Shown here piece after piece: positions 32,893-64,000 of a DNA stretch of 64,000 nt. The stretch is from the NCBI GenBank assembly GCA_010093605.1, contig MU004182.1, positions 186,001 to 250,000 on the forward strand, read 5' to 3'. Every line of letters begins with the position of its first letter. Position 1 is the stretch's first letter. The position numbers and the translations under genes are program-made. The stretch comes from Lophium mytilinum. Taxonomy: Eukaryota. The notes under the pieces were generated by a model. It had not been told where the DNA came from and did not search any database. It was given only the letters and a program-made list of their open reading frames with translations.

Positions 32893-32902
32893 GTATATAA
32901 GA
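32893..32902 (+). promoter_or_regulatory. Putative TATA box of the downstream membrane-protein gene
   Basis: GTATATAAGA followed by a CT-rich tract, ~350 bp upstream of the ATG at 33248. Confidence 0.5.
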
Positions 32903-33100
32903 GGCCGAGCTCGGAGCTTCCTCCATCACTTCTACCTTCCACTTTCTTTGGCACCTGCTTGATGATGCCAGGACCGCCTTCGGACCGCAGACACCTGCCA
33001 ACGACTGCTCACGATACCTTCCGATTGCGGCCGCCAAGCTGTGCGACTATATCTACCTCCTCCATCGCACCATCCGACTCTCTTCCCTCAGCTTCCATAA

Positions 33101-33248
33101 TCCAATTCTCCTCCACACTCTCATCCGTTTGACAGACCTGATCGAACGTTGAATCCACTCCAACAGTGCCATCATCCGATTCTCTTCCACACTCTCATCC
33201 GTTTGACAAATTCGATCGAACGTTGAAGCCACTCCAACGGTGCCATCA
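33101..33248 (+). repeat. 74-bp direct tandem duplication (33101-33174 and 33175-33248)
   Basis: Both copies share TCCACACTCTCATCCGTTTGACA and GATCGAACGTTGAA..CCACTCCAAC.GTGCCATCA, with few substitutions. Confidence 0.92.
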
Positions 33249-34153: not shown

Positions 34154-34290
34154 GGGGAGGTCAGGGGTCTATTATGGGTAAACAATAGGATATTCTGCAT
34201 GTTCTTTCGGCAGCGTACGAGTGGAGCAGGGGCATGCGGAGGGGCCTTTTATGCCGTAATTAGCAGTTACTATGCCTCGGCGTCAAACAT

Positions 34291-34752
34291 TCTACACTCG
34301 TTCACCACTGTTTGAGGTGCCTCACAATATTTTCAAGATGAGAGAATTCAACCTTTTGAATTACTATTAGACTCGTGAAGCCACTCTAGACAGTGTCAGC
34401 ATGATGTACGCAGATCGGCTTCCAATTCCAACACGCTCGGCATAGCGATCCGGACACTCGTTCACCACTGTTTGAGGTGGCTCAAGTATTTTCAATCAGA
34501 AAGAATCTCAACATTTTGGACTAACAGTAAACTCGTGAGGCCACTCTAGACAGTGTCAACACGGTGTACGCAGATTGAAATTGTATCCGATGTGTCCGAC
34601 TTCCAATTCAAACACGCTCGGCACATCAATCCGTACACTCGTTCACCACTGTTTGAGGTGCCTCACAGTTCCGAATAAAAAAAGGGAAAACAGACAATTT
34701 AGACTACCGGTAGCCTCACGAGGCTACTCCAGACAGTGTCAACATGGCGTAC
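34291..34752 (+). repeat. Three tandem ~160-181-bp units, each an imperfect inverted repeat (hairpin); candidate structured ncRNA
   Basis: Identical 26-mer ACACTCGTTCACCACTGTTTGAGGTG at 34294, 34454 and 34635. Each is followed ~55-65 nt later by a complementary arm (C/T)ACTC(T/C)AGACAGTGTCA(A/G)C. Confidence 0.88.
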
Positions 34753-34759
34753 AGAACCT

Positions 34760-37700
34760 TCACGCGCGCCTCTCAGGCCCATCATCCGGCCTCCCATCCC
34801 ATTCAGACTCCTCATCCGGCTCAACACAATACCCGCCACCGCTCTCCGCAGTCGGCGTGGTAGGCATACCCGTGATACCGGTCGGTATGTTCGTCGTGAA
34901 ACTCCACGTATACGGCGGGAAACAGAGCGAGCTTGTCCGGACATGCGCCCTAGTGGAGCGCGTTGTGACCGGGCCAACGCAGTAGCCTCCGCCGCTTCCT
35001 GCGGTCGGTGTGGGAGGGACACCTGTTATGCCGGAGGGGATGTCGGATGCGAAGCTCCAGGTGTATGGAGAGAAACAGAGAGAAGAAGTTTCGATCGCGG
35101 AGATGGTGGTGAGGGTGGGGCGGTGGTGAGTTGGGCGAGGCGGGGGTCTATGTCCTTCATCAGGCCCTTCTCCGTTGTCTTCGGGCCACTCCGTCACGGT
35201 TACGGTTTTTCCGGAGATGTAACATGGTTTGGAGTACGATACGGGGGTTGGCTTAGGAGTGATGACGGGAGGATGAGGGCGTTCGCAGAAGCCGTAGTCG
35301 GATTGGCAGCCTCTATCGCAGGCAAAGGGGGTGTTGCCACTGGCATGAGGTCAGTGTCAAGGTCTGGCAGCGGAAGGAAGGTATCTTACCATCGGCCATC
35401 TGGGCCACAGCATCTTCCGAACTTCGATCCCTTGCAAGTAAATCCTCTATGTTCTCCGCATGTCCCGTCCGGCGAGATGGGATTCGAAGGTGGTGTGACG
35501 GGCCGGGGCGGTTCGCAGGCGCCGAAACGAGGTTGGCATAGTTCGCCGCAAGCGAAGTCATTGTTGCCGCTGTAGTAAGGAGTTGGCAGTCAGAATGAGA
35601 ATGAATGAATAGTGGGGAAGGGGTGGTTTTACCAATGACCATCTCTGCTACAGCATCTTCCAAATGGCGATCCTTTGCATGTATAGCCCCTACGGCCTCC
35701 GCATGTCCCGTCTGGCGAGATCGAGCCTGGTGGTAGGTTTGGTGTTGGCGAAGGTTCGTTTTCACAGCTCTTCTTTCCTCCTTTGATGTAGCAGGTCGAG
35801 AAAGATGAGGATGATGGGCTGGCTACCACTCCAAACGGCGAAGTTTCAGAGCTAGAATAGACAGAGGATGATATACTAGAAGATGTCGATATTGCAGAGC
35901 GAGAATAGACGGAGGAGTCTATACTAGAAGATGTTGATGTTGCAGAGGGAACATTAGAGCTGCTAGGCGAAGGACTACTAGCGCTGGCAGAAGGGAGGCT
36001 GGTGGGCGGCGGGGCCTCTGAAGATACCGGGCTTGGGATTGAGCATGGAACCTTCATCATGCCCCCGCTAGACCGTTGAGATGTGGTTTGTCCAATAGCG
36101 CTCCTCAATGTACAAGAACCCATCGTATATGTGAAGTCGACACACTCACTCATTCCTGCGCACTGGACTTGACAGTCTGAGAACGTTGTACGAGTTGGGG
36201 CACTTAGAACGGTCCCTGAATGAATGACTCCGCAGTACGCACGGAAACAGACATCCGAGTATTGATACACTTGGCCGTCTTGGACTCCATTACAGGTAAG
36301 TGGCAGCGGAGATGACGACTGAACAAGCGCGGATGTTGTAATAGTGCTTGATGTAGAGCTTGGACTTGACGGAGTGGCAGAGGAACTCGCTGTGGGTGGT
36401 GGCTGTGAGCTAGTTGAAACTACCACGGTTGAGCTTGTCGGCGATGAGACCACACCACCTGGAGACGCTACGGAAGAGCTTCTAGTGGATGAAAGAGAGG
36501 CACTCAGCGTGCTTGTCGATACGGTGACTGGAGAAGGCGAGAGCGGATTGCTAGCTATGGTTGATAGTGACGAGGAGCTTGATGTTACCGGTGTAGTCGT
36601 AGGAGAGAATGGTGGCGAGCTTGAGCCGATTAACAACCGCGCTGCACAAGCCCCAGGCTGATTCCGCGACATGCCCAAAGCGCTCTTCATCTGACAGGAT
36701 GAGCTCATGCTGGTATACTGGACACCCACACAGTTCCGAGCATTTCGACAAGTAGAAATGCATCCAGAGAAAGAGAGGCCTCCCATCGCTTGGCCTAGAT
36801 TTCCATAGGGACCGCCCATGTAGCTGGTGTTGCACTCGACGGTAAAGTCGGATCCGGTATCCGAGTATCCTTGACTAAGGCCGCAACAGGAGGCTGGACT
36901 GGGGCTACCAGAGAGGGTGGAGGATGAAGATGACGCTCCAGACTGTACACTCGTGGGACCACCTAGTGTCGGCGAGCCTGGTGACGAGCTGAAGGAAGAT
37001 GGTATTGACGGAGTTATGACTGACCCAGAAGCCGGCAGTGAGCTTGGAAGCACGGACGAGCTTGAAATCACGGACGAGCTTGAAATCACGGACGAGCTTG
37101 GAAGCCTAGATGACGATGACGATGAAGATGCGGACGATTGTGAGCTTGAAGCACTAGATGACGATGGCAGCGACGCTAATGGTGAGCTTGTGGCCTCGGG
37201 GGAAAATGAGCTTGGAGCTGTAAGCGAAGATGGCAGCGACACTGATGGAGAGCTCGATTCTGCTAAAGATAATGTTGTGCTCGTGGCTATAGGAGAAGAC
37301 GGTGAGGCTGAGACAACGGGAGAAGCTGACGAGCTCAGAGTGACAGAAGAAGACGACGAGTTTGCCACAGCCGATGACGGCGAGGACAGACTTAGTGCCG
37401 TAGACGACAGCGGGGAAGCAATTGATGGTGAGGTCGAAGGCACGGTGGAAGATAGCGACGCGATCGATGCCGAGCTTAGAGCCGATGGACTTGACAAAGT
37501 CAACGAGTCTGACAGTGAGCTGGGTAGCCCAGACGAGGAAGTTGGAGCAAGCGAGGATGAACTTGAGCCAAATACCCTCCTTGCCGCACAGGCCCCTGGT
37601 TGATTGGCTGGAGTGGCAATAGTATTCTTGTATGAGCAAGTTGAGCTTGAAGGTCCTTGGTTGCCAGACGTGAACTGAACGACCACACAGCCATCTGTGG

Positions 37701-40700
37701 TGCTGCATCCGGCTACACAATTGGCGAAGGTAAGACCACGCACGGTTCTGATGTTTTGACCTGGATGACTGGCGTTGCATTCAACGATATAATCAGATCC
37801 GGCAGCTGTGAAGGGTCCTTCATCGAGGCCGCAACAGGTAGCGCTACTGGGACTAGGGATCGACGGGGCAGATGAGGTTGATGCACTTGATGAGCTGCTG
37901 GCTCCCAATGCCGTTGAGGGTTGAGAAGATGATACTGAGATACTGCTTGGGGAACTTCCAGGTGCCGCCGATGTGAGAGTTGAAGACGACGCTGCTGGGG
38001 TTGAAGATGGCGAACTAGTAGAGGCGGAGACACTACTGCTCAAGCTCGTGGATGTTGATGGTGGGAGATTGCTTGGGGAGCTCCCAGGTGCCACCGATGT
38101 GAGAGTTGACGACGTTGCTGCTGAACTTGAAGAAGGCAGACTTGTAGACATCGAGGCAGTGCTTGTGGAAGGTGAGAGTACGATACTGCTTGGCGAGCTC
38201 CCGGGAGCTAGCGATGTGAGACTTGACGACGACGCTGCTGAACTTGAAGATAGCAGACTTGCAGACGTCGAGGCAGTGCTTGTGGAAGGTGAGAGTACGA
38301 CACTGTTTGGCGAGCTCCCGGGTGCCAGCGATGTGAGACTTGACGACGACGCTGCTGAACTTGAAGATGGCAGACTTGACAACGACACTGCTGAAGTTGA
38401 AGATTGCAGACTTGTAGAGACGGGAACACTGCTGCTGATGCTCGCGGATGGTGATGCTGGGCTACTGGGTCCGCTGGTAGAGATGGTTGTGGCCGGCGAA
38501 GCCGGAGAATTACTTGGAGAGATTGAACCACCAAGCCCGCTTGATAAACTACTCGATGATGATGAAGCTGGCGATGAGCTCGGGGAATTCGCTGGTGGCG
38601 AACTTGGGGAGTTGCTTGGAGAAGCTGAGCTACTGGATCTGCTAGATAAAGAGCTTGGAGAAGTTAGGGGGCCGGGTCCGCTCGATGAAATGCTCGCTGG
38701 TGGTGAAGCTGACAGATTGCTTGAAGAAAATGGGCTACTGGGTGCGCTAGATGAGTTAGTTGGCGGCGGCGGTGTTGACGAGATGCCTGGAGAGGTTGGG
38801 CCACCGGGTCCACTTGATGGACTGCTTGTTGGCGGCAAAGTTGAAGAAGCGCTCGGAGAAGTTGGCCCACTGGAAAAGCTTGATGAGTTGCTTGCTAGTG
38901 GAGATGTTGGCAGGTAGCTTAAAGAAATTGAACTACTGGATCCGCTTGATGAACTACTTATTGGCGGCAAAGCTGAAGAAGCGCTCGGAGAAGTTGGCCC
39001 ACTGGAAAAGCTTGATGAGTTGCTTGCTGGTGGCGATGTTGGCGAGTAACTTAAAGAAATTGAAATACTGGATCCGCTTGATGCACTACTTGTTGACGGC
39101 AAAGCTGATGAAGTGCTCGTAGAGCTCGCTGGTGGCGATGTTGGCGAGTTGCTCGAAGAAGTTGAACCACTGGATCCGCTCGATAGACTAGTTATTGGCG
39201 ACAGAGCTGATGAAGTGCTCGTAAAACCCGCGGGTTGAGATGGTGACAAGTTGCTCGAAGAAGCTGAGTCGCTGAGTCCACTAGACGAACTACTTGACAG
39301 TGATGAAGCTGGAGAATTGCTTAGAGACACTGAGCTACTGCTTACGCTGGTAGGACTACTCGACGCGGCTACAGATGGCGTATTTCCTGGCAAATTGACA
39401 CTACTTGAATTACCGGGAGCTGATGTTGCCAGTGATATAGTCCCTGATGTGGTGGTTATTGCAGTCGTGATACTGGGTACTTGGCTTGTAGCACTTGTTG
39501 TGCTGGTCACTGAGCTTGATGAAGGCTCTTCGACCTTTTGGAAGAATGCTGCCGGCGTCTCATCAATAGTGGGAGGTCCCTTCGTATATCTCTTAAGGGT
39601 ACAAAGCCTATCTTGAGTATAGACGACACCAACGCACATAACGTTGGCTGCACAGGCACCTAAACATGATGACAGTGGGACATTTGTCATGTTTGCAATG
39701 TCCGTGGTAGGATCGGTATAGGTTGCGTTACAGTTCGGTTGGAAGCAAACACCTCCTTGACAGTAGCTCTGCCCTTCGGCATATCCAAAGCAGCTTGTGA
39801 CTGTGGGGGATGCGCTGAAGCTTGCGGAAGATGTGGTTATTGAGGGGGATGATGAGACACTGGAATTGGTCGAGGATTGTTCGAATGATAACGGTGAAGA
39901 TGTCGCAGTTGACGGTGGAGAAGACGCTGGACTAGAAGAAGTTGAGGACCCAGACAGCGCCGAGCTGATCGCACTACTTTCATCTAGAGATGATAGACTC
40001 GATGTAGCTGTCGGGCCTTGGGGCGGAGAGGAGGAAAGGCCAAGAGATGATTGCGAACTTGAGAACTCAGACAAGGTACCTAAGAGGCTGTCTGAAGAAC
40101 CAAGGCTTGCTGATAGCGATAGGCTTGCTGAGGATGAGCTTGATGTAGTTGTTGCACTTTGTGATGGAGAGGAGGAGCTGCTAAGTTGCGACTGTGAGCT
40201 CGAGACGCTGCTCGAAGAGCCAAAGCTTGCCGATGGCGACAGGCTTGCTGATGTCGATAGGCTTCCCGAAGATGAACTCGATGTAGCTGTTGCATTTTGC
40301 GATGGAGAGGAGGAGCTGCTAAGTTGTGACTGTGAGCTCGAGAGGCTACCCGAAGAGCTAAGGCTTGCCGATGACGAAAGACTCCCTGAATCTGAATTCG
40401 ATGTAGCTGTCGGACCTTGCGGCGCGGACGGAGAGCTGCCTGGAGATGATTGCGAGCTCAAAAGGCTAGACAAGGTACTGGACAGACTACCTGAAAAGCT
40501 AAGGCTTGCTGATGCCGATGGGCTTCCCGAGGATAGACTTGATGCTGTTGTCGCACCTTGTGATGCGGATGGAGAGCTACCATTAGATGATAGCAAGCTC
40601 AAGGGGCTAGAGAAGGGGGTCGTGAAGCTGTCCGAAGAGTTAAAGCTTAAAGTCAGCGATGGGCTTTCCAAAGGTGAGCTCGCTGAGAAAAATGAAGACG

Positions 40701-43700
40701 CGATGGAAGTTCCCGAAGATTGCGATAAGGATCCTGTCGATGGGCTTCCAGAAGACGAAGTTGCACCGATCGACATTGACGAGCTACTGGATTGACTAGT
40801 TGAGCCAGTCAAAGACGAAGAGCCACTTGCAAAGTTGCAAACTGCCGAATCGGTAGTGGGGCTGTCTGAAGGCGTGCCTGTGGTAGATTTAAGCTGGCAC
40901 GATTTTGATGTTCTCCCGTAAGATACACCCACACAGTTAGCTGTTTGCTGACACGTGCTGACACAAGCCTCAAAGCTATTTTTGGTGGAAGCGAATCCAA
41001 GATTTCCAGTAGGATAATTAGTGCTGCATCTGATGGTGCATAAGCCACCACCAGGCGGAGAATATGACGATCCGTTTGACCCAGGACACAAGCTTGAAGG
41101 CGACGAGGCAAGCGGAGATGAGGTCACGGATACTGCGCTCGATGCTCCACTTGAGGCCGAGGAGATACCAGGTGAGCTGCTGATTGACGATGGCGTTGAT
41201 CCAGAAGTGTTCAAAGACGGTGAAATAGAGGTTGTACTTGAAGCCGTAGTTGAGGCTGACGCAGGAGCCGAATTCATGACTACAGAGCTGGTGACCGATC
41301 CAGACGCGAAAGAAGAGACGGAAAGCGGAGATGATGAGGCGCTCGATGTCTGGTTGTTCCAGCTCACGCTTGGCTGAGATGTGGACGAACTAGAATCGCT
41401 GTTGAGCGTAGATGGAGAGACTCCTGGTCCACCTGTTGAGCTGGATGATGTTCCAGACGTTGTAGCTGTTATAGACGGGGTGTTGGACGCGGGCGAAATT
41501 GACGAGGCTGAACTAGACCCAGAGGAGACGGAGAAAGTACTTGTCGTACTGGACGGGCCTGAATCTACGGATGGGCTAGAACCGCTAATAGGCGTGGAAG
41601 AAATGCTCTCCCCACTGAATGAGCTAAACAAACCTGATGTCGATGCAAAGAAGCTAACTGAAGTATTCGAGGTAGTGGATAATGCCGAAAGGGTGGATGG
41701 ACTGAAGCTGCTACTAAACGGAGGGGAAGAGAATCCAGTCCCGCTGAAGGAGGTGGGTGAGGTTGAATTCGCTCCAGGGGAGCTCCACAGAGTACCTGAT
41801 GAGGCGGAGGGGACAAAAGCTGTGGATGAGCTAGAGCTGCTACTAGTCGGAGAGGATACCCCGGTCCCACCAAAGGAGCTGGACGAGGACGAAGTCAATG
41901 CAGAGGAGCTGGACAAAGTGCTTGACGAGGTGGAGGGGGCAAAAGCTATGGATGAGCTGGAGTTGCTACTAGTCGGAAGGGAGACCCCGCTCCCACTAGA
42001 GGAACTGGATGAAGCTGGAGGCAATCCGGAGGAGCTAGACGAAGTACTTGATGACGCGGACGTGACTGAAACTGTGGACGAACTAGAGCTGCTACTAGGC
42101 ACAGACGAAACCCCCTTCCCGCTAAATGAGCTGAGTGAAGACGATGTCGATCCGGAAGAACTAGACGAAGTACTTGACGACCCAGACGAGACTGAACTTG
42201 TAGATGAGCTAGAGCTGCTACTAGGCGGAGAAGAAACCCCGTTCCCGCTGAACGAGCTGGGCGAAGACGAAGTCGATCCGGAGGAGCTTGACAAAGTACC
42301 AGATGACGCGGACGGGACTGACATCACAGATGAGCCAGAGCTGCTGGTAAGCAGAGTAGAAGAAACCCCTTCCCCGTTGAACGAGCTTTGTGAAAGTGAA
42401 GATGTTATGGACGAGCTAGAGCTACTGCTAGTGGAAGGAGAAGAAACTCCTTGCCCGCTGAAGGAGCTTGGCGAGGGCGAAGCTATGGATGAGCTGGAGC
42501 TACTGCTAGCCGGAGGAGAAGAAACTCCTGTTCCATTAAAGGAACTGGGTAAAGGTGAAGACGATAGAGATGAGAATACGCTGGACGGGGACTCCACCGA
42601 AGTAAGGTTGGTGGAGCTAGAGCCACCTGAAACAGTACTCGGCGCAGACGAAGAGCCTGAGAATGATGAGGGGAAGGACGACAAGTAGGTGGATCCAGAT
42701 GGCAGCGAGGATGATGAGGATATTGAAGACGTCATCACAGCTATAGATGAGGCATTAGAAATGCTACTACTACTCCCTCCCGTCGTGGATGGTGATGTCC
42801 CAGAGAGCGATGAGCTTGACGAAGGAGGGTGATAAGCAGCGCACAGTCTTGGGCCGTTGTTCGTGATGGATGAGCCGTTCGTAGCCACGTAATAACAAGC
42901 TTGCGAGTCCGGATACCATACTGCCTCGTTGCAGCCCTGGGCATTGTCGCATATCTGAACACACTGTCCAAAAGTTGAGGAGAATGTGGAGCTTGAGCTG
43001 CCGAGATATACACCGTTACACAGGATCTCATAGGAATTGCTCCCAGAGAAGACGGTGCTGCCTTCAGCCTGCCCACAGCACAATGCAATTGATAGGGTCG
43101 ACGAGGCAGCGCTTGATGATGTGGCTCCCGAAGAAACGTTAGTCATGGCGGTGATGGTCGGTGATGAGAGCGATGTTGAAGAAGGGACTGTGGTTTCTGT
43201 ACCCGAGGAAGTGGTTCTACTACTCGTGTCGGAGAGACTATTCGTGCCTGTGGATAACGGTGTTGAAGCTATAGAAGAGAATTCGCTTGAAGACGAAGCG
43301 CTAGCTGAGCTGCTGTTCACTCCAGCGGAGGGTGATACCAAAGACGGCGAAAACGATGTGCTGAAGGTTGAGTTACTGGGCGGACCGCTGCTCAATGTCC
43401 CCGACGGTGATGGCGAAAATGATGATGAAAGCTCGCTCGAGGAGGGGCTTCCAGATGGACTGCTATTCGGACTACTAGGTGGTGACACGGAGGGAGGCGA
43501 AGACACCGCGCTTGAAGATGACGCACTGCTGTTCGATAAGAGAGTTGGCGGTATCGAAATAGGCGAAGAGAGCATGCTTGAAGATGAGGTACCAATTTGA
43601 CTGCTATTCCATCCACCAGATGGCGATATTGAGATAGATGAAGAAAACACGCTTGAATCTGAAACACTAGATTGGCTGCTGTTCGATGCGCCAGTTGGCG

Positions 43701-46700
43701 AAGCCGAGACAGGAGAAGGCAATGCGCTAGAAGATTGACTGCTACTCGATACTCCTGATGGCGATATCGGACCCGGAGAAGAGGATGCACTCGAGGTCGA
43801 GATTGCAACCGAAAGGGTGGTAGGAATAGTCGTTGGAATTGAAGACGAAAATCCTGACGCGCCACCTGAAGTCGTCGCAGATACAGAAGCAGGACTGATG
43901 CTGCTGGTAATGGAGGAACTGTTTGATCCAGAAGACGATGATGTTGGAGACGGTGAAGAGGCCGCGCTTGGAGAGATTGCCACCGAGAAGGTAGTAGGAA
44001 CAGTCGTTGAGATTGACGACGGAGATCCTGACGCACTGTTCGAAGTCGTTGCGGATACAGATGCGGGACTGGAGCTGTTACTAATGGAGAGGCTGTTCGT
44101 CCATACAGTTGAGGATGCCAGAGGCGACGAGGAGAACGCCGCTGAGGATGTGATGCTTGACGAAGTAACAACACTCGGTTGTGTGGGTGTCGAAGAGGAG
44201 ATTGCCTCGCTGGACAGGTTGCTGGACACTCCAGAAGTTGATGATAGCGATGAGGTGGAGTTCGAGTATATACTCTGTGAAAGACTGTCGGTCGTTGAAG
44301 TGATGCTCGGCGATGAAAGACCTGCACTCGATCCGGTGCTTGTCAACGAGGAAATTGTGACACTAGTCGAGCTGCTAGACACTCCAGATGTGAAGGAGCT
44401 GCCGGTAATCAGCGCGGTGCTTAAAGATAGACTACCACTAGAAGAAGAGTTCCCTAAGCTATAAGAGGGATTCGTTCCCGAGACGGTACTGCTGAATGAC
44501 GAAGATGCGGCAGGTGATTGGCTACTCGACAACGAGGGTGAGCTTCCGGAGGATCCCATAGCTGGGCTTGATATAGTGCTCAGAGAATAGCTATTGCCAA
44601 ATGATGAAGACCCGAGCCCCAGTGAACTGCTTGACGATGATGCAGTGGCGTTGGAAAGTGTAAAGCCTGACGTTATTGGAGAACGCGACTCTGCCGAAGT
44701 AGTCACTTCGGATGAATAAGAGGATCCAGAGGAAGTGATGAAGCTCGTGCTAGGAGGTATGGAGCTTGTTGAAGACGACGGCGCTGGTGAAGTAGATCCA
44801 GACAAGTTGAAAGCGGAAGAAAGTATGCTGAACGACCCTGGAGAGCTAGTTGTTGATGCACTCAACGAAGGCGAGCTAGGGGTTGCCGAGGGGTTGCTAG
44901 TGAGGGAGAAGTTGCTGCTCGCTCCGGTCACTAAGAATGAAGAACTCAGCGAAGAATTGCCCGTTGTAGAAGCTTTAAATGGCGAAGATGTTGGTTGGGA
45001 GACGCCGCTAGGGCTGCTGGCAACCGTAAGACTGAGAGTGGATCCAGAAGTAGATGGAGAGAGGCTCGAGGAAGAATTCAGTAACGCAGAAGAATTCGAG
45101 GGAAGACGGTAAGCTGCGCAAAGTCCTTGCACCGTGGCCAACTGGGCGTTTGGCGCGGGAGCCAAGTGATAACATTCAGAAGGATCTCCACCTGGAACCG
45201 CTGCATACCACAATACCTCACTGCAAGTAGCATCACTCTCACAGTCCTGAATACACTCGGTAAACGACAGGTCAGTTGAGGAGGCCTCTTCTGAGGCTTG
45301 ATACCAAGCATCGCAAAGAACTTGATAGGTGCCGCTTCCGGAAGCGACTGTAGATCCACACAGCCCAGCACACACTGCAGACGATGAAGTAGAAGTAATC
45401 GAGCTCGAGGTAGTAGTTGTCTCTGTCAGATCGATAGTCGTGCTTGTGAAAGTCGATGACGAGAGACCTGAGCTTGATCCGAGGGCGAAACTTGCCGACG
45501 AAGTTGTGGCAGATGAGCTACTGTTTACTGACATTGGTGTGTTTTGACTCGGCGAAAACAACGATGCAGACATCACCCCGCTACTAGAGCTTGAGATGGT
45601 TGGGCTATTGTTGGATGCTGAGAGGCTAGAATCAATCGATGATCCCGAGTAAGACTGGCTCGCAGAAAGAGTACTGCTGCTGCGTTGTGTTTCGGACTGA
45701 TTCGAGGATACAGAGCCAGATACGAGGCTACTACTACCACTATCGACTGTACCAGAAGCCGTAGGGATGATAGTTTGTGTGCTGTTTAGAAGTGGCGAAC
45801 TGACCATCGAAGACACAGTAGACATTGGTGATACTACGGCGCTTCCGTTGACAGTGGATGTCGAAGTGGTTGGAGAGCTCTCTGAACTGTTCAAGAGCGG
45901 TGAACTGAATGACGAAATAACACTTGATGATGTCGTTGTCACGCTGCTCTCACTCACGACGACTTCTGAAGTGACTGAGACACTTTGTGAGCTGCTGGAG
46001 AGTGATGAACTTTCTGTCGAAAATACGCTAGACAATGAAGACACCGTGGAACTTTCATTGACAACTGATTCTGAAGTAGTCGATGCACTTTGCGTGCTAC
46101 TCATCGTTGGGGAGGTGGCTAGGAGCATGCTCGAGTTCGTCAATGGTGAAATGACTGTCGAAAACGCGCTGAACAATGAAGATACTGTGGAACTTTCATT
46201 GACAATGGACTCGGAAGTAGTCGATATACTTTGTGTGATATTCATCATCGGGGAGGTCGCTGAGGGCATGCTCGAGTTTGTCAATAGTGAACTAATTGCT
46301 GGAGACACGCTCGGCGATGGCGATACCACGCTGCTCTCACTTATGGACAGTGCCGACGTAATCGAAATATTTTCCGAGCTGCTCAAAAGCAGTGAACTAG
46401 ATGTTGAAGACACGTTGTTAGATGACGATACTGTAGAACTTTCACTGGCAGCGAATTCTGAAGAGACCGAGGAGCTTTGTGTACTCAATGTTGAGGAGCT
46501 AGCCAAAGACGCGCTCGAATTCGTCAATGGTGAACTGACTGCTAGAGACATGCTCGGGGATGATGATGCCACGCTACTGTCGCTGATGACGGGTGTAGAA
46601 GTGAGCGAGATACTTTCCGAATTTGACGGTGTACGCAAACTAGTAACCGAGCTTTCTGAAGAAGAAGTCAACGAACGCGAGACCCAGACCGCAGCACATG

Positions 46701-52700: not shown

Positions 52701-55700
52701 CCGAAAAGCTCGAGATTGATGATGAAGCCGAGACCTCTGACGACGTAGACACATCTTGCGTCGATGTAGAAGGCAGCGTCGCAGAGACACTTGTGCTACT
52801 AGACTGCGAGATGAGTAGCGCATCGCAGGTCCCCGATTGAGGCGTTGTATCCCCTACGCTCTTCTTGAGGAAACATGGTCCATTGCCCGAGAATGAGAGA
52901 TCTACGCAACCTGGGGTCGCTGTACATTCTTCTATACACTGCGTGAAGTTGATGTTGTAAAGCGGGCCACTGAGATTGTCGTTTGATTTGTACACACCCG
53001 CTGAAATAAGGAAATCTTGGCCAGCGATGGTGACAATGGTGTTGTTCCCTAAACCGTAACAGGGCAGTGACGGCGATGGTGATGGTAAAGGAGTTGACGA
53101 GCTTGGAATCAAGGATACAGAAGTCAAGGTTCCGACTGATGATGAGTCCGACTCCGAAGACAGCAAAGAAGATGACGCTAGAGATGAGGAGGGTAGCCCG
53201 AGCGATGAAGCAGTCGAGCTTGTCACAGATGATGACGCAAGCTCCGACGATGGCGAAGATGATACGGAAGATAAAGATGGTAACTCGGACGATGAATCAG
53301 TTGAAGTTGGTAAGGACGATGACCCAGATTCTGAAAATATTGAGGATGATACGGTTGGAGAAGGCGAGGTGATCTCAGACGATGAAGCAATCGAGGTCGT
53401 TAAGAACGATGACTCAGGCTCAGAAGTTAACGAGGATGACACTGTTGGAGATGGCGAAGGTAGCTCGGACGATGACTCAGGCTCGGAAGTTGTTGAGGAT
53501 ACCGTCAGAGAAGGCGAGGGTAGCTCGGACGATGAAGCAACCGAGGTTGGTAACGACGATGAGTCCGGCTCAGAAGTTGTTGAGAATGTTACCGTTGGAG
53601 AAGGTGATGGTAGCTCGGATGATGAAGCAATCGATGTTAGAGAGGACGATGGCTCAGGCCCAGAAGTCGTTAAGGATAACATGGCTGAAGAAGTCGAGGG
53701 TAGCTGGGACGATATATCGGTCGATGTTGCCAGGGAAGAGGAGCTAGGCTCCGGCAACTGCGAGGAGTAAAACGTGGCAGACGAAGAAGACTGCGATACA
53801 AGTACGGCGTCACAGGTCCCTATTTCAGCCGTGGTGACTCCAACAGACCTCTTGAGGAAGCAGGGCCCACCGTTCGAAAATGACAAATCAACACAGTCTG
53901 GATTCGCTGCGCAAGTTGCAATGCATTCGGTGAAATTCATGTTATAGAGAGGGCCTGTAAGGTTGTCGTTCGACTTGTAGACATCCGCTGAGATAAGGAA
54001 CGATTTCCCTCCAGTCGTGTATGTAGAGCTATTCCCAAGTCCATAGCAGGCCGCAGACGGGGATGGTATGAATGCAGACGAAGAAGTTGAAGAGCTCGGC
54101 AGATTGGATGAGGATGACGACAATGTTAGAGACGAAGAGAGTGGTGTTGACGATGGTGCCGTAGAAGTAGACTGCGAGACAAGCATAGCATCACATGTAC
54201 CCAGCTGGGTCGTCGTCGTTCCCACCGACTTCTGAAGAAAGCAGGGCCCATTAGTCGAGTACGAGAGGTCAACGCAATCCGGACGTGCCGCGCAAGCTGC
54301 AATGCAGTCTGTGAAATTCATGTTGTAGAGAGGGCCCGCGATGTTATCGTTTGATTTGTACACATCGGCTGCGATAAGGAACGTCTTGTCTCCTACGGTG
54401 TAAGTTGATCCGTCCCCTAAGCCATAGCAGGCCGCGGAAGGGGACGGAGTAGAAGTGACGGAGGTTGTTGGACTGGAGACCGCCGGAATTAACGAAGGCG
54501 TTGAAGAGTTTTCTGAGGTGCTCGAAGAATCTGATGAGGAGCTCGAAGCAGAGGTTGCTAGGCTCGATGATACCGATTCCGAGGCGCTTGAAGAAGTTAA
54601 CGATGAGCTGGAAGTAGAAGCTCCCAGACTCGAGGAAGGCAACGAAACCGATTCCGAAGCGCTCGATGAACCAGATGATGAGCTCGAAGCCGAGACTTCC
54701 AGGCTCGATGATATTGATTCCGAGGCGCTCGAAGAAACTAACGCTGAGCTCGAAGCAGAGTCCGACGGGCTGGCCGAAGGCGATGAAGATAGTCCCGATG
54801 TGCTTGAGTAAACTGACGTTGAATTCGAAGCAGAGTCCGACGGGCTAGCTGAAGGCGATGAAAACGACTCCGAAGCGCTTGGAGAAATTGACGCTGAGTT
54901 CGAAGTAGAAACTGCCAGACTCGAAGAAGGCAATGAAAACGATTCCGAAGCGCTTGAAGAAACTGGCCCTGAGCTCGAAGCAGAGTCCGAAGGGTTGCCC
55001 GAAGTCGATGAATATAGTTCCGAGGTACTCGAAGTGGCTGACGATGAGCTAGAAGCAGAGTCTGACGGGCTGAACGGCGGTGAGCTTGAGGTCGTCGAAC
55101 TCTGATCTACGGCGGATGAGATAGACAGAGATGAGCTAGATAGTATTAAGCTTGATACCGACAGGCTCTCGGTGACAGAAGACGACAAAAGTAAAGAGCT
55201 GAAAGTAGAAGACGATACGTCGAACGAGCTCGATGGTGGAGTTGGACTAGTCACTACGACGGAAGAGCTCAACGGGGGACCAGGAATGCCATATGCTGCG
55301 CAATAACCTAGCAGATCCTGTATTGGGTACGATCCAGCTGATATCAAGTAACAGTAGCCAGGGGCAGTAGGAAGGTACAACGCCTCAGTGCATTCAGGAT
55401 CGTCGTCGCAATTTTGTACACACTGTACGATATCAATGCCAGAGGTCGGCGTGGTGTCGGCTGATTGAGACCCAGGGTACCAAGCCCCGCAAACTAGTTG
55501 ATAGTAATTGCCGCCGGACGTCACGAAAGTATATCCCTCAGCTTGCCCACAGCATGCTGCGGCTGAGGATGTCGAGGAAAGAGATGACGTGGTCCCCGAA
55601 GTGACTAAAGAAGAGGAAGCTGTTGATAACGATGAGCTCGAGGTCGAGAGGACTTCTTGTCTCAAAGCTCCGCACTCTCCAGGTTCCAAGACGGCATCTC

Positions 55701-58700
55701 CTACAGTGCCCTTCAGAAAACAGTCGTTCGAGGAAGGATGGAATGACAAGTCGAGACAAGCACTATTTGCTGCACAATAAGATACGCAAGTGTTAAAGTC
55801 CACGCCACGGTAAGTCGCAATGTCACCGTTAAGGTGGTTGATATCGCATTCTACAGTGAAAGTGACATCATTGTTCGTGAAGGTCGTTTGGTTCTGGTAG
55901 CCGCAGCAGTATCCAGACGGAGTCGGACTTGCGGACGAGGTTGATGTTGTGGTTGTCGGGCTTCCTCCAGACAAGAGACCGTCACAGGTTCCGGACTCCG
56001 TAGATGCAGTTCCTACTGAGCTCTTCAAGTAGCAGGTCCCTCCGCTGGTGTAACTAACATCAACACATGAAGAATTTCCTGAGCACCTAGTCAGGCAATC
56101 ATTGAAGGTACCGCCGAAGAATGGGCCATCAAGGAGACCGCCGAAATGTGTGGTATCAACCGAGACAGTAAAGTTTTTTCCGCCGATAGTCGCTGTAGTT
56201 CCATTCGCATATCCTCCGCAGGACGGCTGAGCGGTTGGAGATGGAGAAGACATTGTTGCTGACGTTGAGGTTGAGGTTGAAGCTGTCGGGCTTCCTCCGG
56301 ACAAGAGGCCGTCGCAGGTTCCTAATTCCGTGGATGCCGTACCAACTGAGCTTTTCAAATAGCAGACCCCGGAATCGGTGTAGCTAGTATAGCTAACGTC
56401 AACGCAGGACGAATTTGCTGCACAGGCCGTCAGGCAATCACCGAAAGTCCCGCTATAGATGGGGTCCCCCAGATTGCCACCGAAGTGCGTGACGCCAACT
56501 TGGACGGTAAAGCTTTTGCTCCCTATAATTGCCGTAGTTCCATTCGCGTATCCACCACAAGTTGGTGGAGCGCTCGGGGAAGGGGATGAGGATGTTGCTG
56601 TCGTTAAGGTTGAGAGGGACGGGCTTCGCCCCGATAAGAGGCCGTCACACGTTCCTACCTCTGCGTTTGCATTTCCGACAGAACTTTTCAAGTAGCAAAC
56701 CCCTGAGTCGGTGTAACTAGTGTAGCTAACGTCAACACAAGAGCTGTTCCCCGCACAAGCCGTCAAGCAATCGGCAAAGGTGCCGCCGTAGATGGGATCT
56801 CCCAAATTGCCGCCAAAATGCGTAACGCCGAGTTGTATGGTGAAGGTTTGGCCACCTATGACTGTCGTGGTTCCGTTCGCATATCCACCGCAAGTGGGCG
56901 GAGCGCTTGGAGAGGGAGAAGAGGTTGAAGACGAAGTCGAAGATGACGCCGTCGGTATTGGTAGGAGACCGTCACAGCTTCCGGCTTCAGCATAGGCATC
57001 GCCCACGGAACTTTTCAAGTAGCAAGTCCCACCGCTTGTGTATGTGACATCAACACAACTGGAATTTCCCGCACAGGCCGTCAGGCAATCGTTGAAAGTA
57101 CCACCAAAGAAAGGACCTGCCAAATTACCACCAAAGTGCGTGATACCCAACTGAACCAAAAATGGCTTCCCGCCCACAGTAGCTGTGGATCCGTTTGCGT
57201 AGCCGTAGCAGTCCGTCATGCTTGGGGAGGGTGCCGGGGAAGAGGAAACTGTGGAACTTGACGTCGTTGATATTGGCAAAAGACCATCACAGGTGCCCGC
57301 TTCAGCGTAAGAGCTCCCTACTGAGCTCTTGAGATAACAGGTTCCTCCGATTGTGTAAGATACATCTACACAGCTGGAGTTCCCCGCACAGGCGTTTAGG
57401 CAGTCAATGAACGTCAGACCGAAAAGTGGGTCTCCTAGGTTTCCACCAAAGTGTGTAGTCCCTAGACTTATGAGGAAGGTCTTACCACCAGTAGTAGCTG
57501 TAGACCCATTTGCATACCCGTAACAATCTGTCATACTAGGGGACGGAGACGGGGAGGCGGTCGTTGAGCTTGATGCCGTTGATATTGGCAAGAGACCATC
57601 GCAAGTACCTGCTTCAGCAAAGGCAGTTCCTACGGAGCTCTTCAGGTAACAGGTACCCCCAACTGTGTAGGATACGTCTACGCAGCTGGAGTTTGATGCA
57701 CAACTGGCCAAGCAGTCGCTGAATGCAAGATTGAAAATCGGGTCTCCGAGATTCCCACCGAAGTGCGATATTCCTGTTTGGATAAGGAACTGCTTTCCTC
57801 CAATCGTCGCCGTAGATCCGTTCACGTAGCCGCCGCAGGCCTGCACCGTTGGAGATGGGGAAGAACTCGATGTTGACGTCGTTGAGGATGGGCTGCTTGG
57901 AAGGAGGCCGTCACAGCTCCCCGGATCCGAGATTGTGTTTCCCACAGAACCTTTCAGATAGCAGGTCCCACCAGAGGTATACGTCACATCCAAACAGCTA
58001 GAATTGCCTGCGCATGCTGCTAGACAGTCGCTGAATGCCAGATTATAGATAGGGTCGCCTAGGTTCCCACCGAAGTGACTAATTCCAGACTGGATTAAGA
58101 ACGATTTACCTCCAACAACCGCAGTAGACCCATTTGCGTAACCATAGCATGCGGATGGAGACGGCGAAGCAGCAGCTGAAGAAGAAATAGTCGAAGTACT
58201 AGAGGGCGAAGCTTGAGGGTACAATCCATCACAGGTGCCAGCCTCGTAAACCCGACTACCGACCGAGTTCTTCAAATAGCAAGTGCCCCCGCTGGTGTAT
58301 GAGGCATCAACACAGGCAGGGTTTGCGGCGCAACGTGCCAGACAGCCGGTGAAGTTGAGGTTATAGACTGGTCCCTCAAGATTTCCGCCGTTATGGGAAA
58401 GATCTGACTCGACGAAGAAAGGTATGCCGGCTACTATGGCCGTAGAGGCGTTTGCATAGCCATAGCAGGGAGACGAAGGGGACGCTGTAGCTGACGACGA
58501 TACAGTCGGAGACACGCTATTCGTTGATGAGGAGCTTGGTGTACTCGAACTCACTAGGGCATCGCAAGTCCCGGCCTGATATGTCGGATTGGTTCCAGCG
58601 ACGCCCTGATTCAGATAACAGGTACCTCCGCTGGTATATGCAGCATCTGTGCACCCCTGAGTAGTAGCACAAGTTGTCATGCACTGCGTGAAATTGAGAT

Positions 58701-61700
58701 TGTAGAGGGGTCCAGCGAGCAGCTTATTTGAATTGACGGTGTTAGTTTGGACCAAAAAGGTCACTCCGTTGATGGTGGCTGTGGTACCGTTTGCGTATCC
58801 ATAACAGCTTACGGATGCAGATGGAGATGACGAAGCGAATGTTGATGTTCCAGACGTCGCAGAATTCGAAATGGTTGTCGACGTTACTACGGACCTCACG
58901 GACACCAAGGCGTCACAAGTCCCGGCCTCATACGCTGGATTTGTCCCAGCAACTCCCTGTTTTAGATAGCACGTGCCTCCGCTGGTGTACGAGAGATCTG
59001 TACATGTCGAATTTGACGCGCAGGCCGTAATGCATTGCGTAAAATTCAAATTGAAGAGCGGGTCTCCAAGATTGTTATTGGAGTTCCTAGTGTTTGAGTT
59101 GATGACAAAGGTGACGCCGCCGAATGTAGTAGTTGCAGAGTCCGCGTATCCATAACAAGACGCGGATGGCGACGGCGATGGCGACGAAAAGGTCGACAGT
59201 GACGATGACGGTGAGATGGATGCTATTGAGCTTGAAGCGGACGAGCTAGATAGCGCTGGCGATGAAGACGCCGAGAGCGAAGAAGAGAGTGAGCTGGATG
59301 CTGTCGAACTCGAAGTGGACGAGGATTGCGATGACGTCGATGAAGAAGCCGAGAGCGAAGAGGAAAGTGAGCTGGATGTCGTCAAGCTCGAAGCGGATGG
59401 CGACGGCGATGGGGACGAAGAGGCCGAGAGCGAAAGCGAAGCTGAGCTGGTGGCTGTCAAGCTTGAAGTCGACGAGCTGGACAGCGATGCGCTCCCGATC
59501 ACCAAAGCGTCGCATGTACCACTTTCTGAACTTTTAGTTCCAACGCTCTGTTTCAGATAACAGGTCCCGCCGCTGAGATGAGTAGTCAGTAAATATCTGC
59601 GGTCTCAGGCATAACACCCATACCTTGTATATGCAAGATCAACACAAGCCGCGTTAATTGTGCAGTTCCCCAAGCAGTCTAGAAAAGAACCTCCGAACAG
59701 AGGGTTACCCAAGTTATTGTTTGACTTCGTCACGCCGTATTCAATGTAGAAGGTGACTCCATTGACTGTGGTTGTTGTGCCATTGGAGTAGCCATAACAT
59801 GTTGGCGGAGCTACAGACGTAGTTGAAGATAGTGCCGAACTAGTAGAAGACCCAGGGCTTGCTGAGGGTGCTGAGGTAGGAGACAGGGACTGGGACGATG
59901 ACACTGCGGAAACTGCATTAGAGCTGGAGCTTCCCAGAAGAGTCGTCAGAACGCCGGTGAGAACAAAGCCTAGCCCAATAGTCGAAGTACTTGGAGGAGT
60001 TGAATACAGATTGCAGACTGAAGTCGTAGCGTTATAGACCGCCGATTGGCATGCGTTGTTTCCCCAGCCCGCACAGACGTCTAGACACAACTGAAGCGAA
60101 AAAACTGCCGAGACGCTGGAAAGAAGGGTTCCTGGGGTAGCGTTATTGCACAGAACGGTGTAGTTCTGGCCACTGCTCAAGTATGTCGTGCCATTAGCAG
60201 CTGGGCAAGTGAGGGCAGTAGTTGAAGGAGACGCCGACGAGACTATACTGGAAGATGTCGTAGAAGATATCGTGGGACTCGTAGACCCACTGGCACTTCC
60301 ACTCGAACCCAGAAGGGAGCTCAAGATGCCCGTCAACACGTTACTCACGCCGGTTACTAAGAAATATGATGTCCCTGATGCTGCGCGTCTCAGTGTACAC
60401 ACTTGGCTTGTAGCGTTGTATGAGGCAGTGCCACATCCGCCGCTCGAGTCTAAAAAGCTTGAGCAATAATTGACGCATGTTACCAGATCTGCTGTTATGA
60501 CGGTGCCAATGACAGTCCCTCCGGAAGTATCTGTACCGCACAGAACGGTGTACTGTTGGCCATTGCTCGTGTAGGTTGTGCCGTTAGCACCAGGGCACAC
60601 TAATGCGGATGCTGAGGCTGAGGGTGATGCGGACGCGACTGAGGGGCTGGGACTGCTTCCACTAGAGCCTCCTAGAAGGCCGCTCAGAACCCCGGTCAAT
60701 AGATCAACTGTGCCCCCTACCAAACCAGTTCCAGAGCTTACAGCGGCTCTCAGTGTACAAGTAAGCGTAGTTGAATCGAATGTAGACGAAGCACATTGGC
60801 CGTTCGAGTAGCCGGCGCAATAGTTCAGGCAGGTTGTAAGGTCCGCAACGCCATTAACAGTGCCCAGTATAGTCCCTCCAGTGTTTGTGTAACACAAAAC
60901 CGTATACGTTCGCCCATAACTAGTATACATTGTTCCATTGGCAGACGGACAACTCAAAGCAGTCGAAGATGGCGATGCTGACAGGCTCGTGCTAGAGAGA
61001 ACAGTGCTACTACCTGTAGAACTCGATGCCAATGTGGAACTTGAAAAAAGGCTAAGCGCGGTAGAGCTTGTAGAACTGGATGGTATTATAGAGCTTGAAG
61101 GGGAACTAGTAGCCACTAAAGAGCTTGTAGAACTTGAGGCGAATGTGGAGCTCAAAGGGGAGCTAGTGGCGGTAGAGCCTGAAGAAGAACTAGTAGCCAC
61201 TGAAGAGCTTTTAGTCGTCGTAGAACTTATAGGTGAGACGGAGCTAGAAGCCACCAAGGAGTTCGAGGTTGTAGGCGATGAAGAACCTCCGACCCCTCCA
61301 AGATTGATGCTGGTAATCGATAGACTCGGAAAACTTAATGACAGACCGGAGACAGCGGCGGAGCTGGATATCACCGAATTGCTCGAAGAGACCGAGCTAA
61401 TGATCGAGACTGAGATCGAAAGCACGCTCGACGTTGTTGTAGCAGAAACGGCACTCGACGCAGATGTTGTAATCAGGCTGGTTATGGACGGAGCGCGGGA
61501 CGAGCTCGAACTCGAACTCGACGAGGAAAGCAGTGTAGCAGAACTCGTAACAGCCGGCGAGCTTGTCGTCAACGCTGTCGATGACGACGTAGCCACTGGA
61601 GATGAAGACGGGGCTACCGTCCGCACGGCATCCCAAACCGTGGGATTATAACTACCAGTGTTGGCGAGAGACTTGACATAGCACTCGGCAGGTCCTTGAG

Positions 61701-62424
61701 AGTGGAGCGGGATGTATCCGACATCTTGACAATTGCTCAAGGAGTTGCAGTAGCCGATACAGGCATCGAACGAGCCAGAGTAAGGCGAGTAAAGGGGCCC
61801 GGCAATGTTCGCGTCGTACCTATCCAGATAGCAGGTGATGGTGTAGTAGTATGTTCCTATCCGAACGACCTGGCCATCATTTGCGGGACAGCTGATAGTC
61901 GTGGATGGCGAAGCTACAACAACAACGGTGGTTGAAGGCGTCTGGGTGGTGGTCGTTGCCACCAATACTGCTGAGGATGATGGAACTCCTGTATAGCGCA
62001 CAGCATCGTGGACCGTGGCGACATATGAGCCCGAATTGACCGCACTTTTAGGGTAGCATTGTGGAGGACTCCCAGCGTTATAGCTGACAGCCACACAGTT
62101 GGAGAGGGAGGCGCAATAATCAATACAAGCGTCCATGGTGGCGTATCCGTAGTAGGGGCCGCCAATGTTCGAATCATAGCGATCGTATGAACAGGTGATG
62201 AGGTATGATTTCGATCCGGAAGTGTATATGGTGCCGGATGATCCAGGGCAGACAATCGCGCGTTCTGCCAGTTGTCGCTCTGTCAAGATTTCTGGCACTG
62301 CTAATTCCTTACCCGCCAATGCAGGTACTCGTGCTGGTGCTCCATAAACGAGCGATGTGAAGTGTAAGTTTACCAAAAGAATTGCGAGGCGCCTGTGCCA
62401 GGCGCCTCTGCTAGAACTCGCCAT
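34760..62424 (-). CDS. Giant secreted Ser/Thr-rich mucin-like protein, ~9166 aa, with ~36 PAN/Apple-like modules and two C-terminal CBM18 chitin-binding domains; exons 62424-59624, 59572-35633, 35569-35390, 35339-34760
   Basis: Signal peptide RRLAILLVNLHFTSLVYGA; repeated C-x3-C-x5-C-VDVSY..CYLK modules. Introns 59623-59573, 35632-35570 and 35389-35340 each restore an interrupted domain (YTS/GGTCYLK; CCSRDGHC/GNNDFACG; CCGPDGRC/GNTPFAC). Length includes a 185-N gap. Confidence 0.9.
49852..50036. other. Assembly gap (185 N) inside a ~78-bp coding tandem repeat
   Basis: N run flanked on both sides by near-identical GAGGTGGTTGACGAGGAGATGTCGGTGCTGGCGATCTCGGA units. Confidence 0.95.
52550..52633. 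repeat. Perfect hexanucleotide microsatellite (GGGCTT)14 encoding (Pro-Ser)n on the minus strand
   Basis: Read directly from the sequence. Confidence 0.95.
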
Positions 62425-63116
62425 ACTCACCTGCTAGGCTCGGCCTAGAAGAGAACGTCGCGGATAACTCGAGTCGCCGATCGAGATGGGGAAAATGAAT
62501 GGTAGGCCGGGGAACTAATGAGTGATGAAGGCCGTAAATCGCGAGAAAGACAGCCAGAGGAAGGCTAGTCGACAGCAAGACGCGTCTCGGATGACTTTTC
62601 CAGAAGAGCGGCCTGATCTCTTAATCCCGGGGTACGTGGCGCGTCCATATTTTCGCGGTCTAGTTGGAATGGAGATCTCTCAAGGCATATCTCCGCATGG
62701 GAATGCACCAAAGGCGAGATGGTGGTACATAGGGATCGCTTGTACGGCAGTTGAGCAAGACTGTCGGGTTTGAAGATATAATTGACTACGCGCAGTACAG
62801 ACTTCAAATACTCTTAATCTAAACGAAGTGGAAATGAGTGCAAACCCACGTAGCCTGTGTATGACGCCCACACGTCTGTGGTAATCATGTATGAACTTAC
62901 ATATCGAAAGTTTAGTGGCGATCATGCATCAAAACAGCAGCGTAATCACCCATGCCAGCTTTTCTAGATCTTGATGGACACATGCTGATTCACAGCGTGT
63001 CAAATTTGCAGTAGTTGAAATGCTCTTATCCTCACTAATCGCCCTCTCTTTCTTGGGCTCTGCCGACGGAGCCGTTGTAAGGGTCGGGCCGCCAATGTCT
63101 TCAGCAAGGGGGTTCT

Positions 63117-63949: not shown

Positions 63950-64000
63950 CTACACATCGAGACATTGTCAGCCATTTATCTACATGCAACTTCACGATAT

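Follow-up and report, generated by a model that had tools for sequence, protein, structure and literature searches.

A 27.5-kb gene of Lophium mytilinum predicted to encode a giant secreted mucin with 36 PAN/Apple modules

Little is known of how filamentous ascomycetes adhere and of the proteins that make up their sheaths (PMC6023273); for typical yeast adhesins, the same source gives a size of 600-2,500 residues. Blastomyces BAD1 is anchored to chitin through its C-terminal domain (PMC3708853, PMC6023273). CBEL, a PAN-containing wall adhesin of oomycetes, binds galactose/N-acetylgalactosamine (GalNAc) motifs (PMC3532174), and the glycan binding of TgMIC4 is abolished by the substitution K469M (PMC6608980). 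Here we describe a gene in a 64,000-nucleotide stretch of Lophium mytilinum DNA (contig MU004182.1, positions 186,001 to 250,000; hereafter the window) that is predicted to encode a secreted protein of 9,166 residues, in which 36 PAN/Apple modules are strung between Ser/Thr-rich spacers. L. mytilinum, recorded from Pinus (PMC11514609), belongs to the Mytilinidiaceae, a family of Dothideomycetes. We conclude that this protein, called the giant below, is an extreme variant of an uncharacterized, widespread fungal multi-PAN mucin design, and that its novelty is mostly one of scale.

The initial annotation had spliced four open reading frame fragments into one coding sequence, and this model stands. 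The gene lies on the minus strand, and its four exons give 27,501 nucleotides, or 9,166 residues plus a stop codon, with no internal stop and a predicted chain mass of ~898 kDa before glycosylation; the 62 X residues in the translation all come from one run of N. Exon 1 (59624..62424; 2,801 nucleotides) carries the ATG, the signal peptide, modules 1-5, and the first part of module 6, and matches Pfam PAN_1 at 57 bits. Intron 1 (59573..59623; 51 nucleotides) falls within module 6. Exon 2 (35633..59572; 23,940 nucleotides) encodes modules 6-36, the Ser/Thr spacers, and the first part of a hevein-fold module. Intron 2 (35570..35632; 63 nucleotides) interrupts a cysteine codon of that module in phase 2, and intron 3 (35340..35389; 50 nucleotides) cuts the same codon of a second hevein-fold module. 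Between them, exon 3 (35390..35569; 180 nucleotides, symmetric phase 2) corresponds to one hevein repeat unit, made up of the end of the first module, a linker, and the start of the second. Exon 4 (34760..35339; 580 nucleotides) supplies the end of the second hevein-fold module, a Pro-rich tail containing two aromatic-rich two-cysteine repeats, a hydrophilic end, and the stop codon. The hevein-fold pair and the tail, which lacks a glycosylphosphatidylinositol (GPI) signal, had been missed in the earlier four-exon reading. Each of the three introns begins with GT, ends with AG, and has a CTGAC branch site 15-24 nucleotides before its end. Across the 23.9-kb exon, the sense frame contains no stop, compared with 183-703 in each of the other five frames; antisense frames of 243-436 codons in the gene were judged to be shadows of the Ser-rich frame, and the three that were looked up in the protein collection were absent from it.

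A signal peptide, as initially proposed, can be recognized by eye at residues ~1-28 (62341..62424), where a basic stretch is followed by a hydrophobic stretch (19-residue hydropathy of 1.51 at residue 13) and a small-residue cut near residue 28; residues 1-55 are probably signal peptide plus pro-peptide. On the minus strand, a perfect splice-donor hexamer (62425-62430) abuts the proposed start codon and might allow an alternative 5' splice by which the signal peptide is lost. The chain has a mucin character, with 31.7% Ser, 11.2% Thr (Ser+Thr 43%), 7.3% Pro, and 0.2% Trp, and with 118 N-x-S/T sequons. The spacers between modules are 20-676 residues long and total 5,841 residues (43% Ser, 11% Thr), about two-thirds of the chain, compared with 3,039 residues in modules. 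An origin as satellite DNA was ruled out, as each of the six Ser codons occurs between 297 and 605 times, and dinucleotide indices gave no sign of repeat-induced point mutation. At 52549-52640, a 6-nucleotide repeat in 15 copies encodes an extensin-like Ser-Pro run, and the contigs of all sequencing runs break there.

Contigs of three public runs (X1, X2, and X3), two of which may be the source of this DNA, were placed on 34400-54300, a range that ends short of intron 1. Run X3 skips exactly 35340-35389 and 35570-35632, that is, introns 3 and 2, and the DNA runs X1 and X2 show no skip at either. Every one of the 30 bins into which this range was divided is covered in X3, and no X3 depth was seen at 34486-34527, where X1 and X2 do have depth. 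Because of the two splice skips and this missing depth, we take X3 as RNA; its RNA status in the index is a guess, and no run holding the gene is recorded as RNA. Introns 2 and 3 are thus removed in transcripts, and one spliced X3 contig joins both of these junctions and exon 4. In all, the X3 contigs cover the 3' 20 kb of the gene. Intron 1 is predicted solely from its splice signals and from the fact that its removal lets module 6 regain the pattern of its neighbors. The longest X3 piece, judged by its length, extends beyond the start codon into an upstream dehydrogenase gene, which may reflect overlap between the untranslated regions of the two genes or the presence of DNA in X3.

The run of 185 N (49852..50036) lies inside a 90-nucleotide (30-residue) tandem repeat of a spacer. 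The left flank ends five bases before a unit boundary and the right flank begins at one; as 185 equals 5 + 2 x 90, the frame is kept, and any whole number of units would keep it. The five-base junction was found in all three runs at 2.1-2.9 times the flanking depth, with a short side of only 20 letters, below the bridging rule of 31 letters on each side. This depth fits a collapsed array with two or three junctions, and the length of the giant is uncertain by ~30 residues owing to the repeat. It is very unlikely, in our view, that the locus does not encode one working protein, whether because two genes are parted at the gap, because a polyprotein is cut small, or because a repeat expansion is transcribed and left untranslated. 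Such a reading can draw on the contigs, as none of those listed extends at least 31 letters beyond the gap in both directions (20 on the short side) or spans the gene, and on the homologues, as the only orthologue seen is a 172-residue fragment and none of 637 scored candidates proved to be a homologue of 4,389-13,965 residues (a blank that means little for proteins above 4,389 residues, given that the giant itself is absent in full form from the collection). It is opposed by the same 90-nucleotide repeat standing in phase on both gap flanks, by the depth of the junction in three runs, and by a frame that stays open for 23.9 kb with no second signal peptide after the N run and no stop before it. 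The spacers speak against a polyprotein as well. Of the nine dibasic sites in the giant, modules contain four, the tail three, and the signal peptide one; the ninth borders module 34 and is the only one in an inter-module spacer, so that Kex2 cutting into units is unlikely.

The cysteine modules, estimated at ~36 beforehand, number exactly 36 by a four-cysteine core pattern (C-x3-C..C..C), which also picks out the two C-terminal hevein stretches; in PAN/Apple domains, this core joins a helix to a strand through two disulfides. With a profile derived from 345 modules in database matches, 36 of 36 were recovered, the weakest at 14 bits; this profile is not fully independent, as it included a few modules of Lophium and Mytilinidion fragments. 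The four cysteines are invariant in all 35 aligned modules (module 6, split by an intron, was omitted). The proposed PAN identity is supported by Pfam (PAN/Apple, PF00024 and PF14295), where PAN_1 matches the three large pieces of the giant at 57, 168, and 57 bits (cut-off 21.4) and PAN_4 matches as well, with only 3, 7, and 4 single PAN_1 stretches on these pieces passing an E-value of 0.1. The fold was modeled by AlphaFold for two of the 36 modules, module 10 with six cysteines and module 28 with eight. The model of module 10 (predicted local distance difference test score, pLDDT, 91.6) best matches apple 5 of TgMIC4 in complex with lacto-N-biose (Z 9.3, root mean square deviation (rmsd) 1.4 Å, 64 aligned residues), and a Z of 8.1 (rmsd 2.1 Å, 74 aligned) was obtained with 6RYV, a copper oxidase from Colletotrichum, through its PAN modules. 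For module 28 (pLDDT 92.7), the best PAN domain has a Z of 8.5 (rmsd 2.8 Å, 72 aligned), and the top matches, with Z between 8.1 and 8.5, are domains of the plasminogen type and of kallikrein/factor XI. For both modules the scores are moderate, which is normal for a domain of 80 residues. PAN/Apple chains form the top rows of a wide fold search for both modules, and sequence profiles lead to the same chains; Foldseek returned nothing under an E-value of 0.001, yet ranked the same families first. The models thus indicate that modules 10 and 28 have the α/β PAN fold. The WSC domain (PF01822) was considered and set aside: no profile match was found on the pieces of the giant at an E-value of 0.1, and the Wsc1 structure 7PZ2 scored Z 5.4 and 4.4 against modules 10 and 28, below canonical PAN domains.

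The modules are unevenly spread, with 18 of the 36 in the first 2,360 residues, and they fall into several classes. Modules 6-18 (55297..59805) form a dense block with linkers of mostly 22-36 residues. Modules 19-25 (50383..54435) have longer spacers, and modules 26-31 (42838..49473), with spacers of up to 676 residues, belong to an eight-cysteine class that has no lysine after the fourth core cysteine. Modules 32-36 occupy 36061..41094. In a tree of all 36, the supported groups are modules 1-5, a 17-member clade (6-16, 19-23, and 25), the eight-cysteine modules (18, 24, and 26-31), and modules 32-35. Among six 82-residue modules of the 9-16 block (15 pairs), synonymous differences are near saturation at 0.71-0.95 per site, and nonsynonymous differences amount to 0.13-0.29 per site; these are therefore old duplications under constraint at the protein level. 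That modules split into several clades could also suit an enzyme scaffold, in which they would dock oxidases or hydrolases along the thread in the manner of a scaffoldin, and the closest solved fungal modules are indeed the N-terminal PAN pair of the copper radical oxidase 6RYV; two relatives, from Hortaea and Elasticomyces, moreover carry a G-x-S-x-G region that looks esterase-like by eye. We regard such a scaffold as the least probable of the readings considered here, as no docking partner was found and the neighboring genes are housekeeping genes. No catalytic domain was found in the giant.

What the modules might bind is suggested by a motif. C-[YF]-x-K occurs in 18 of the 36 modules, a further seven having only Lys or Arg at that position, and in alignment it coincides with that motif in apple 5 of TgMIC4. 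As a sign of a MIC4-type galactose lectin, this shared motif is a hint only. The account toward which we lean, with a little more than even confidence, is that the giant is a secreted, nonenzymatic, heavily glycosylated thread that belongs to the hyphal sheath or extracellular matrix and binds glycans multivalently. The signal peptide would direct the chain into the endoplasmic reticulum, where the disulfide-bonded modules would fold singly. O-Mannosylation of the 5,841 spacer residues would then give a stiff thread of up to 1-2 micrometers. At a rise of 0.2-0.35 nm per residue, the extended length comes to 1.3-2.2 micrometers, an upper range; the micrometer scale of the initial annotation is in this sense arithmetically possible. 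PAN modules that are weak individually could bind glycans, most plausibly galactose-bearing ones, of the fungus's own wall or sheath or of conifer bark or wood, and avidity over many modules would hold the protein on the hypha and glue hyphae together or to the substrate; CBEL and MIC4 offer precedents for this. The two hevein-fold modules may be what remains of a wall anchor, now degenerate, whose affinity for chitin is weak or whose target is a different one.

Several points weigh against this account. Ligand and role are inferred, as distinct from the single open spliced frame, the PAN fold, and the constraint described above. The contigs cannot establish a single 27.5-kb transcript, as none spans the gene, and the translation, binding, and localization of the giant are predictions from its sequence. 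Eleven of the 36 modules have neither Lys nor Arg at the motif position. C-x-x-K is also present in the apple domains of factor XI and in apples 1-2 of TgMIC4, and relatives carry it in 271 of their 335 modules, so the motif may be structural. The module lysine is presumably equivalent to K469, an assignment made through an offset estimated from the chain range and from the A56 boundary given in PMC8247436. PAN domains, finally, bind proteins too (PMC9024836).

With spacers making up about two-thirds of the chain, the glycosylated Ser/Thr mass could itself be the function, in the form of a protective hydrogel that holds water or bars resin and enzymes on bark, with the PAN and hevein modules cross-linking its chains by protein contacts and not binding glycans. 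The loss of the conserved lysine in the eight-cysteine class would agree with this, as would the habitat of mytilinidioid fungi, which live on wood, bark, and resin (PMC11514609). Yet 17 similar modules under constraint, with one conserved surface motif, seem more than a bulk gel would need, and we consider the hydrogel unlikely.

The C terminus bears on how a glycan-binding thread might be held. The two hevein/CBM18-fold modules (residues 8887-8932, 35515..35715, split by intron 2; residues 8947-8992, 35285..35472, split by intron 3) are 60 residues apart and are created by splicing. Each has eight cysteines with an adjacent CC and hevein spacing, and since introns 2 and 3 cut the same cysteine codon, exon 3 represents one duplicated hevein unit. 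On a local profile made from six PF00187 stretches of three relatives (Phyllosticta, Hortaea), the two modules reach 34.7 and 32.6 bits across 47 positions, and 200 shuffles gave at most 7.7. PF00187 gave no direct Pfam match on single-exon pieces, each of which carries only part of a module. The chitin site of hevein consists of Ser19, Trp21, Trp23, and Tyr30 (PMC6908686, PMC10136942). Assigned by cysteine spacing, the corresponding positions are S/D/H/A in module 1, which keeps the Ser and a His and has lost the other two site aromatics, and G/D/R/A in module 2, which keeps none of the four. No GPI signal was detected, the C terminus being hydrophilic with a highest 19-residue hydropathy of 0.3 among the last 40 windows, nor is there a transmembrane stretch in the tail; the tail repeats of exon 4 have no Pfam match and no usable match in the ESM Atlas. 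A hevein pair at the C terminus, the missing GPI tail, the placement of half the modules in the first 2,360 residues, and the precedent of a C-terminal chitin anchor in BAD1 (PMC3708853, PMC6023273) together could describe a tether in which the pair rebinds chitin of the fungus's own wall and the dense N-terminal PAN block is held a micrometer out. This was our first reading of the C terminus, and the degenerate chitin site told against it: six of six hevein modules of relatives retain the Ser and two or three aromatics, and those modules are internal. We now find a BAD1-like tether rather doubtful.

A more ambitious version of the glycan-binding thread may be put forward tentatively, namely that the giant is a positionally programmed, micrometer-long matrix fiber with three module roles, that the sheath of a filamentous ascomycete is built from a giant protein, and that such genes form a hidden class. 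The N-terminal array with its 17 related lectin-type modules would grip the substrate or neighboring hyphae, the eight-cysteine class in the long-spacer half would bind other partners or other chains, and the hevein pair, having given up chitin, would serve as a chain-joining or anchoring knot. If so, there would be a fungal sheath protein comparable to the gel mucins of animals or the giant adhesins of bacteria, the giant would exceed every other fungal family member encountered here, and annotation would be fragmenting such genes, as in both Mytilinidiaceae records.

Those two records are both fragments. As anticipated, automated annotation has split the gene: KAF2500984.1 is a 444-residue L. 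mytilinum protein lying within the region of modules 19-25, of which residues 1-321 correspond to 52038-51076 in the frame of the giant and residues 322-444 to 50935-50567 in a wrong frame. Its annotated intron is unsupported, because X3 is unbroken over 50050-52541. The other record, XP_033581563.1 from Mytilinidion resinicola (172 residues), shares 89.5% identity with modules 7-8 across 162 residues and is likely an orthologue, likewise a fragment.

More distant relatives are abundant. A profile of the 35 aligned modules, run against 1.84 billion representatives, matched 6,796 representative proteins from all kingdoms at an E-value of 0.001, of which the best 150 were examined; module counts come from 161 fetched proteins. 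Among relatives with at least 22% Ser+Thr, the largest count is 12 modules (Phyllosticta citrichinensis, 2,770 residues, with three hevein modules). Proteins of Elasticomyces, Recurvomyces, P. capitalensis, and Fulvia have 9-11, and a fungal-looking protein of 1,765 residues and 21% Ser+Thr has 15. The giant is more than three times as long as the largest mucin-like relative found. Thirty-six modules are no record across life, because proteins that are not mucins reach similar counts: the 5,928-residue ENA protein P0001, without mucin spacers, has 55 matched PAN stretches (33-40 depending on thresholds), and an annelid protein has 21 PAN modules. In 18 relatives scanned, PF00187 was found in three and CBM_1 in one; this pairing of PAN modules with chitin- or cellulose-binding ones favors the glycan-binding thread. 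KAJ9630987.1 (Dothideales, 1,415 residues, P0021) combines five CBM_1 and six PAN_4 stretches, a pairing that a passage of PMC3532174 describes as unique to oomycetes. Proteins of Hortaea (P0052) and Elasticomyces (P0013) have in common the ~300-residue region with G-x-S-x-G, placed between PAN modules, for which no Pfam name was obtained at an E-value of 0.001. The C-terminal SET and short-chain dehydrogenase domains of P0013 and P0137 look like annotation fusions with neighboring genes, and another member of the P0137 cluster has a different end.

Other searches added little. Exon 3 alone yielded none of 41 candidates and no solved structure, and a profile search among proteins of 161-2,000 residues yielded 2 of 7,999, which is uninformative. 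A metagenome scan with modules 7-16 confirmed none of 77 pattern matches, and one with 11 fungal relatives confirmed 183 of 457, of which 79 loci were retained; none of these unannotated loci has more than six modules or an open frame above 1,233 residues. Support for the rarity of giants from this result is weak, as only 24 of the 79 loci are at least 10 kb long and the query was not Mytilinidiaceae-like. In the ESM Atlas, PAN clusters appeared at scores below 0.9 only. In the literature searched, mostly open-access papers, we found no description of the gene or of a giant fungal multi-PAN protein, and no ligand described for a fungal PAN module; PMC11267884, for one, yielded no information on PAN modules.

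Directly after the stop codon of the gene lies a degenerate repeat with three copies of a 160-183-nucleotide unit (34293-34758); depth there is high and loose ends are numerous, which points to additional copies at other genomic sites. Rfam gave no match to this repeat and no credible match at 32000-35000, and the window contains no tRNA. The neighbors at 1-33000 and 63117-64000 are a sugar transporter, a Kelch protein, a cytochrome P450, an RCC1-like protein, ribosomal S9/S16, ChAPs, Trm1, and a short-chain dehydrogenase, and no surface-gene cluster was found among them. An open frame of 1,739 codons on the plus strand (16059-21278) has no Pfam match, and its ATG-started form is absent as an exact sequence from the protein collection.

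As this case shows, a 27.5-kb gene whose product is a secreted, nonenzymatic protein of ~900 kDa can be retained and transcribed in a filamentous fungus. With long-read assemblies, some Candida glabrata adhesins have lengthened to several thousand residues, and there are fungal peptide synthetases of more than 15,000 residues. No upper size of C. glabrata adhesins was found in the passages of PMC8746771 and PMC9548116, and we do not claim the giant as a size record. It does surpass typical adhesins by far, as the initial annotation held (9,166 against 600-2,500 residues; PMC6023273), its length being over threefold the upper limit usual among the yeast adhesins described, and it was overlooked by databases. 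The idea of an exceptional adhesin therefore holds for size, and the occurrence of the same design, smaller, across Dothideomycetes lowers its novelty. The gene supplies several natural classes of PAN module for testing on glycan arrays, and searches for giant secreted proteins of fungi are better directed at the DNA than at annotated proteomes.

The nearest known counterparts of the giant are Dothideomycete proteins that likewise combine fungal-type PAN modules (7-12) with Ser/Thr spacers: KAK8161536.1 of Phyllosticta citrichinensis (2,770 residues), KAK8226641.1 of P. capitalensis (2,081 residues, partial), KAI7317595.1 of Hortaea werneckii (2,119 residues), KAK4933650.1 of Elasticomyces, and KAK4617423.1 of Fulvia fulva. 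No functional description of them was found in the papers searched. They reach at most one-third of the giant's length and one-third of its modules. Hevein stretches (PF00187) number three in P. citrichinensis, two in P. capitalensis, and one, below the Pfam cut-off, in Hortaea; these are internal with a largely intact chitin site, whereas those of the giant are terminal and degenerate. At the level of fold, TgMIC4 apple 5, Sarcocystis SML-2, and the PAN modules of 6RYV have the same architecture and four-cysteine core as the giant's modules. MIC4 apple 5 also has C-x-x-K in common with them, and 6RYV matches nearly a whole module, N-terminal hairpin included. These proteins are only 15-22% identical to the giant, however, have one to six modules and no giant mucin thread, and 6RYV is an enzyme. 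BAD1 resembles the giant in being secreted without GPI and in having a long repeat body and a small cysteine-rich C-terminal domain proposed as a wall anchor, but it is a 120-kDa protein with Trp-rich 24-residue repeats and an EGF-like end that binds chitin; the giant has 0.2% Trp, its repeats are folded PAN modules, and its hevein site is degenerate. CBEL (CBM1 plus PAN/Apple) is, like the giant, nonenzymatic and pairs a module of polysaccharide-binding type with PAN modules, and is a wall protein with galactose/GalNAc lectin activity (PMC3532174, PMC4617103). It has only two repeats, carries CBM1 where the giant has a hevein fold, and belongs to an oomycete. The GPI-anchored yeast adhesins (Als, Epa, Flo), finally, have in common with the giant a signal peptide, a Ser/Thr-rich stalk, and tandem repeats; they have one N-terminal binding domain and a GPI anchor, whereas the giant, without GPI, carries binding-type modules along its whole chain.

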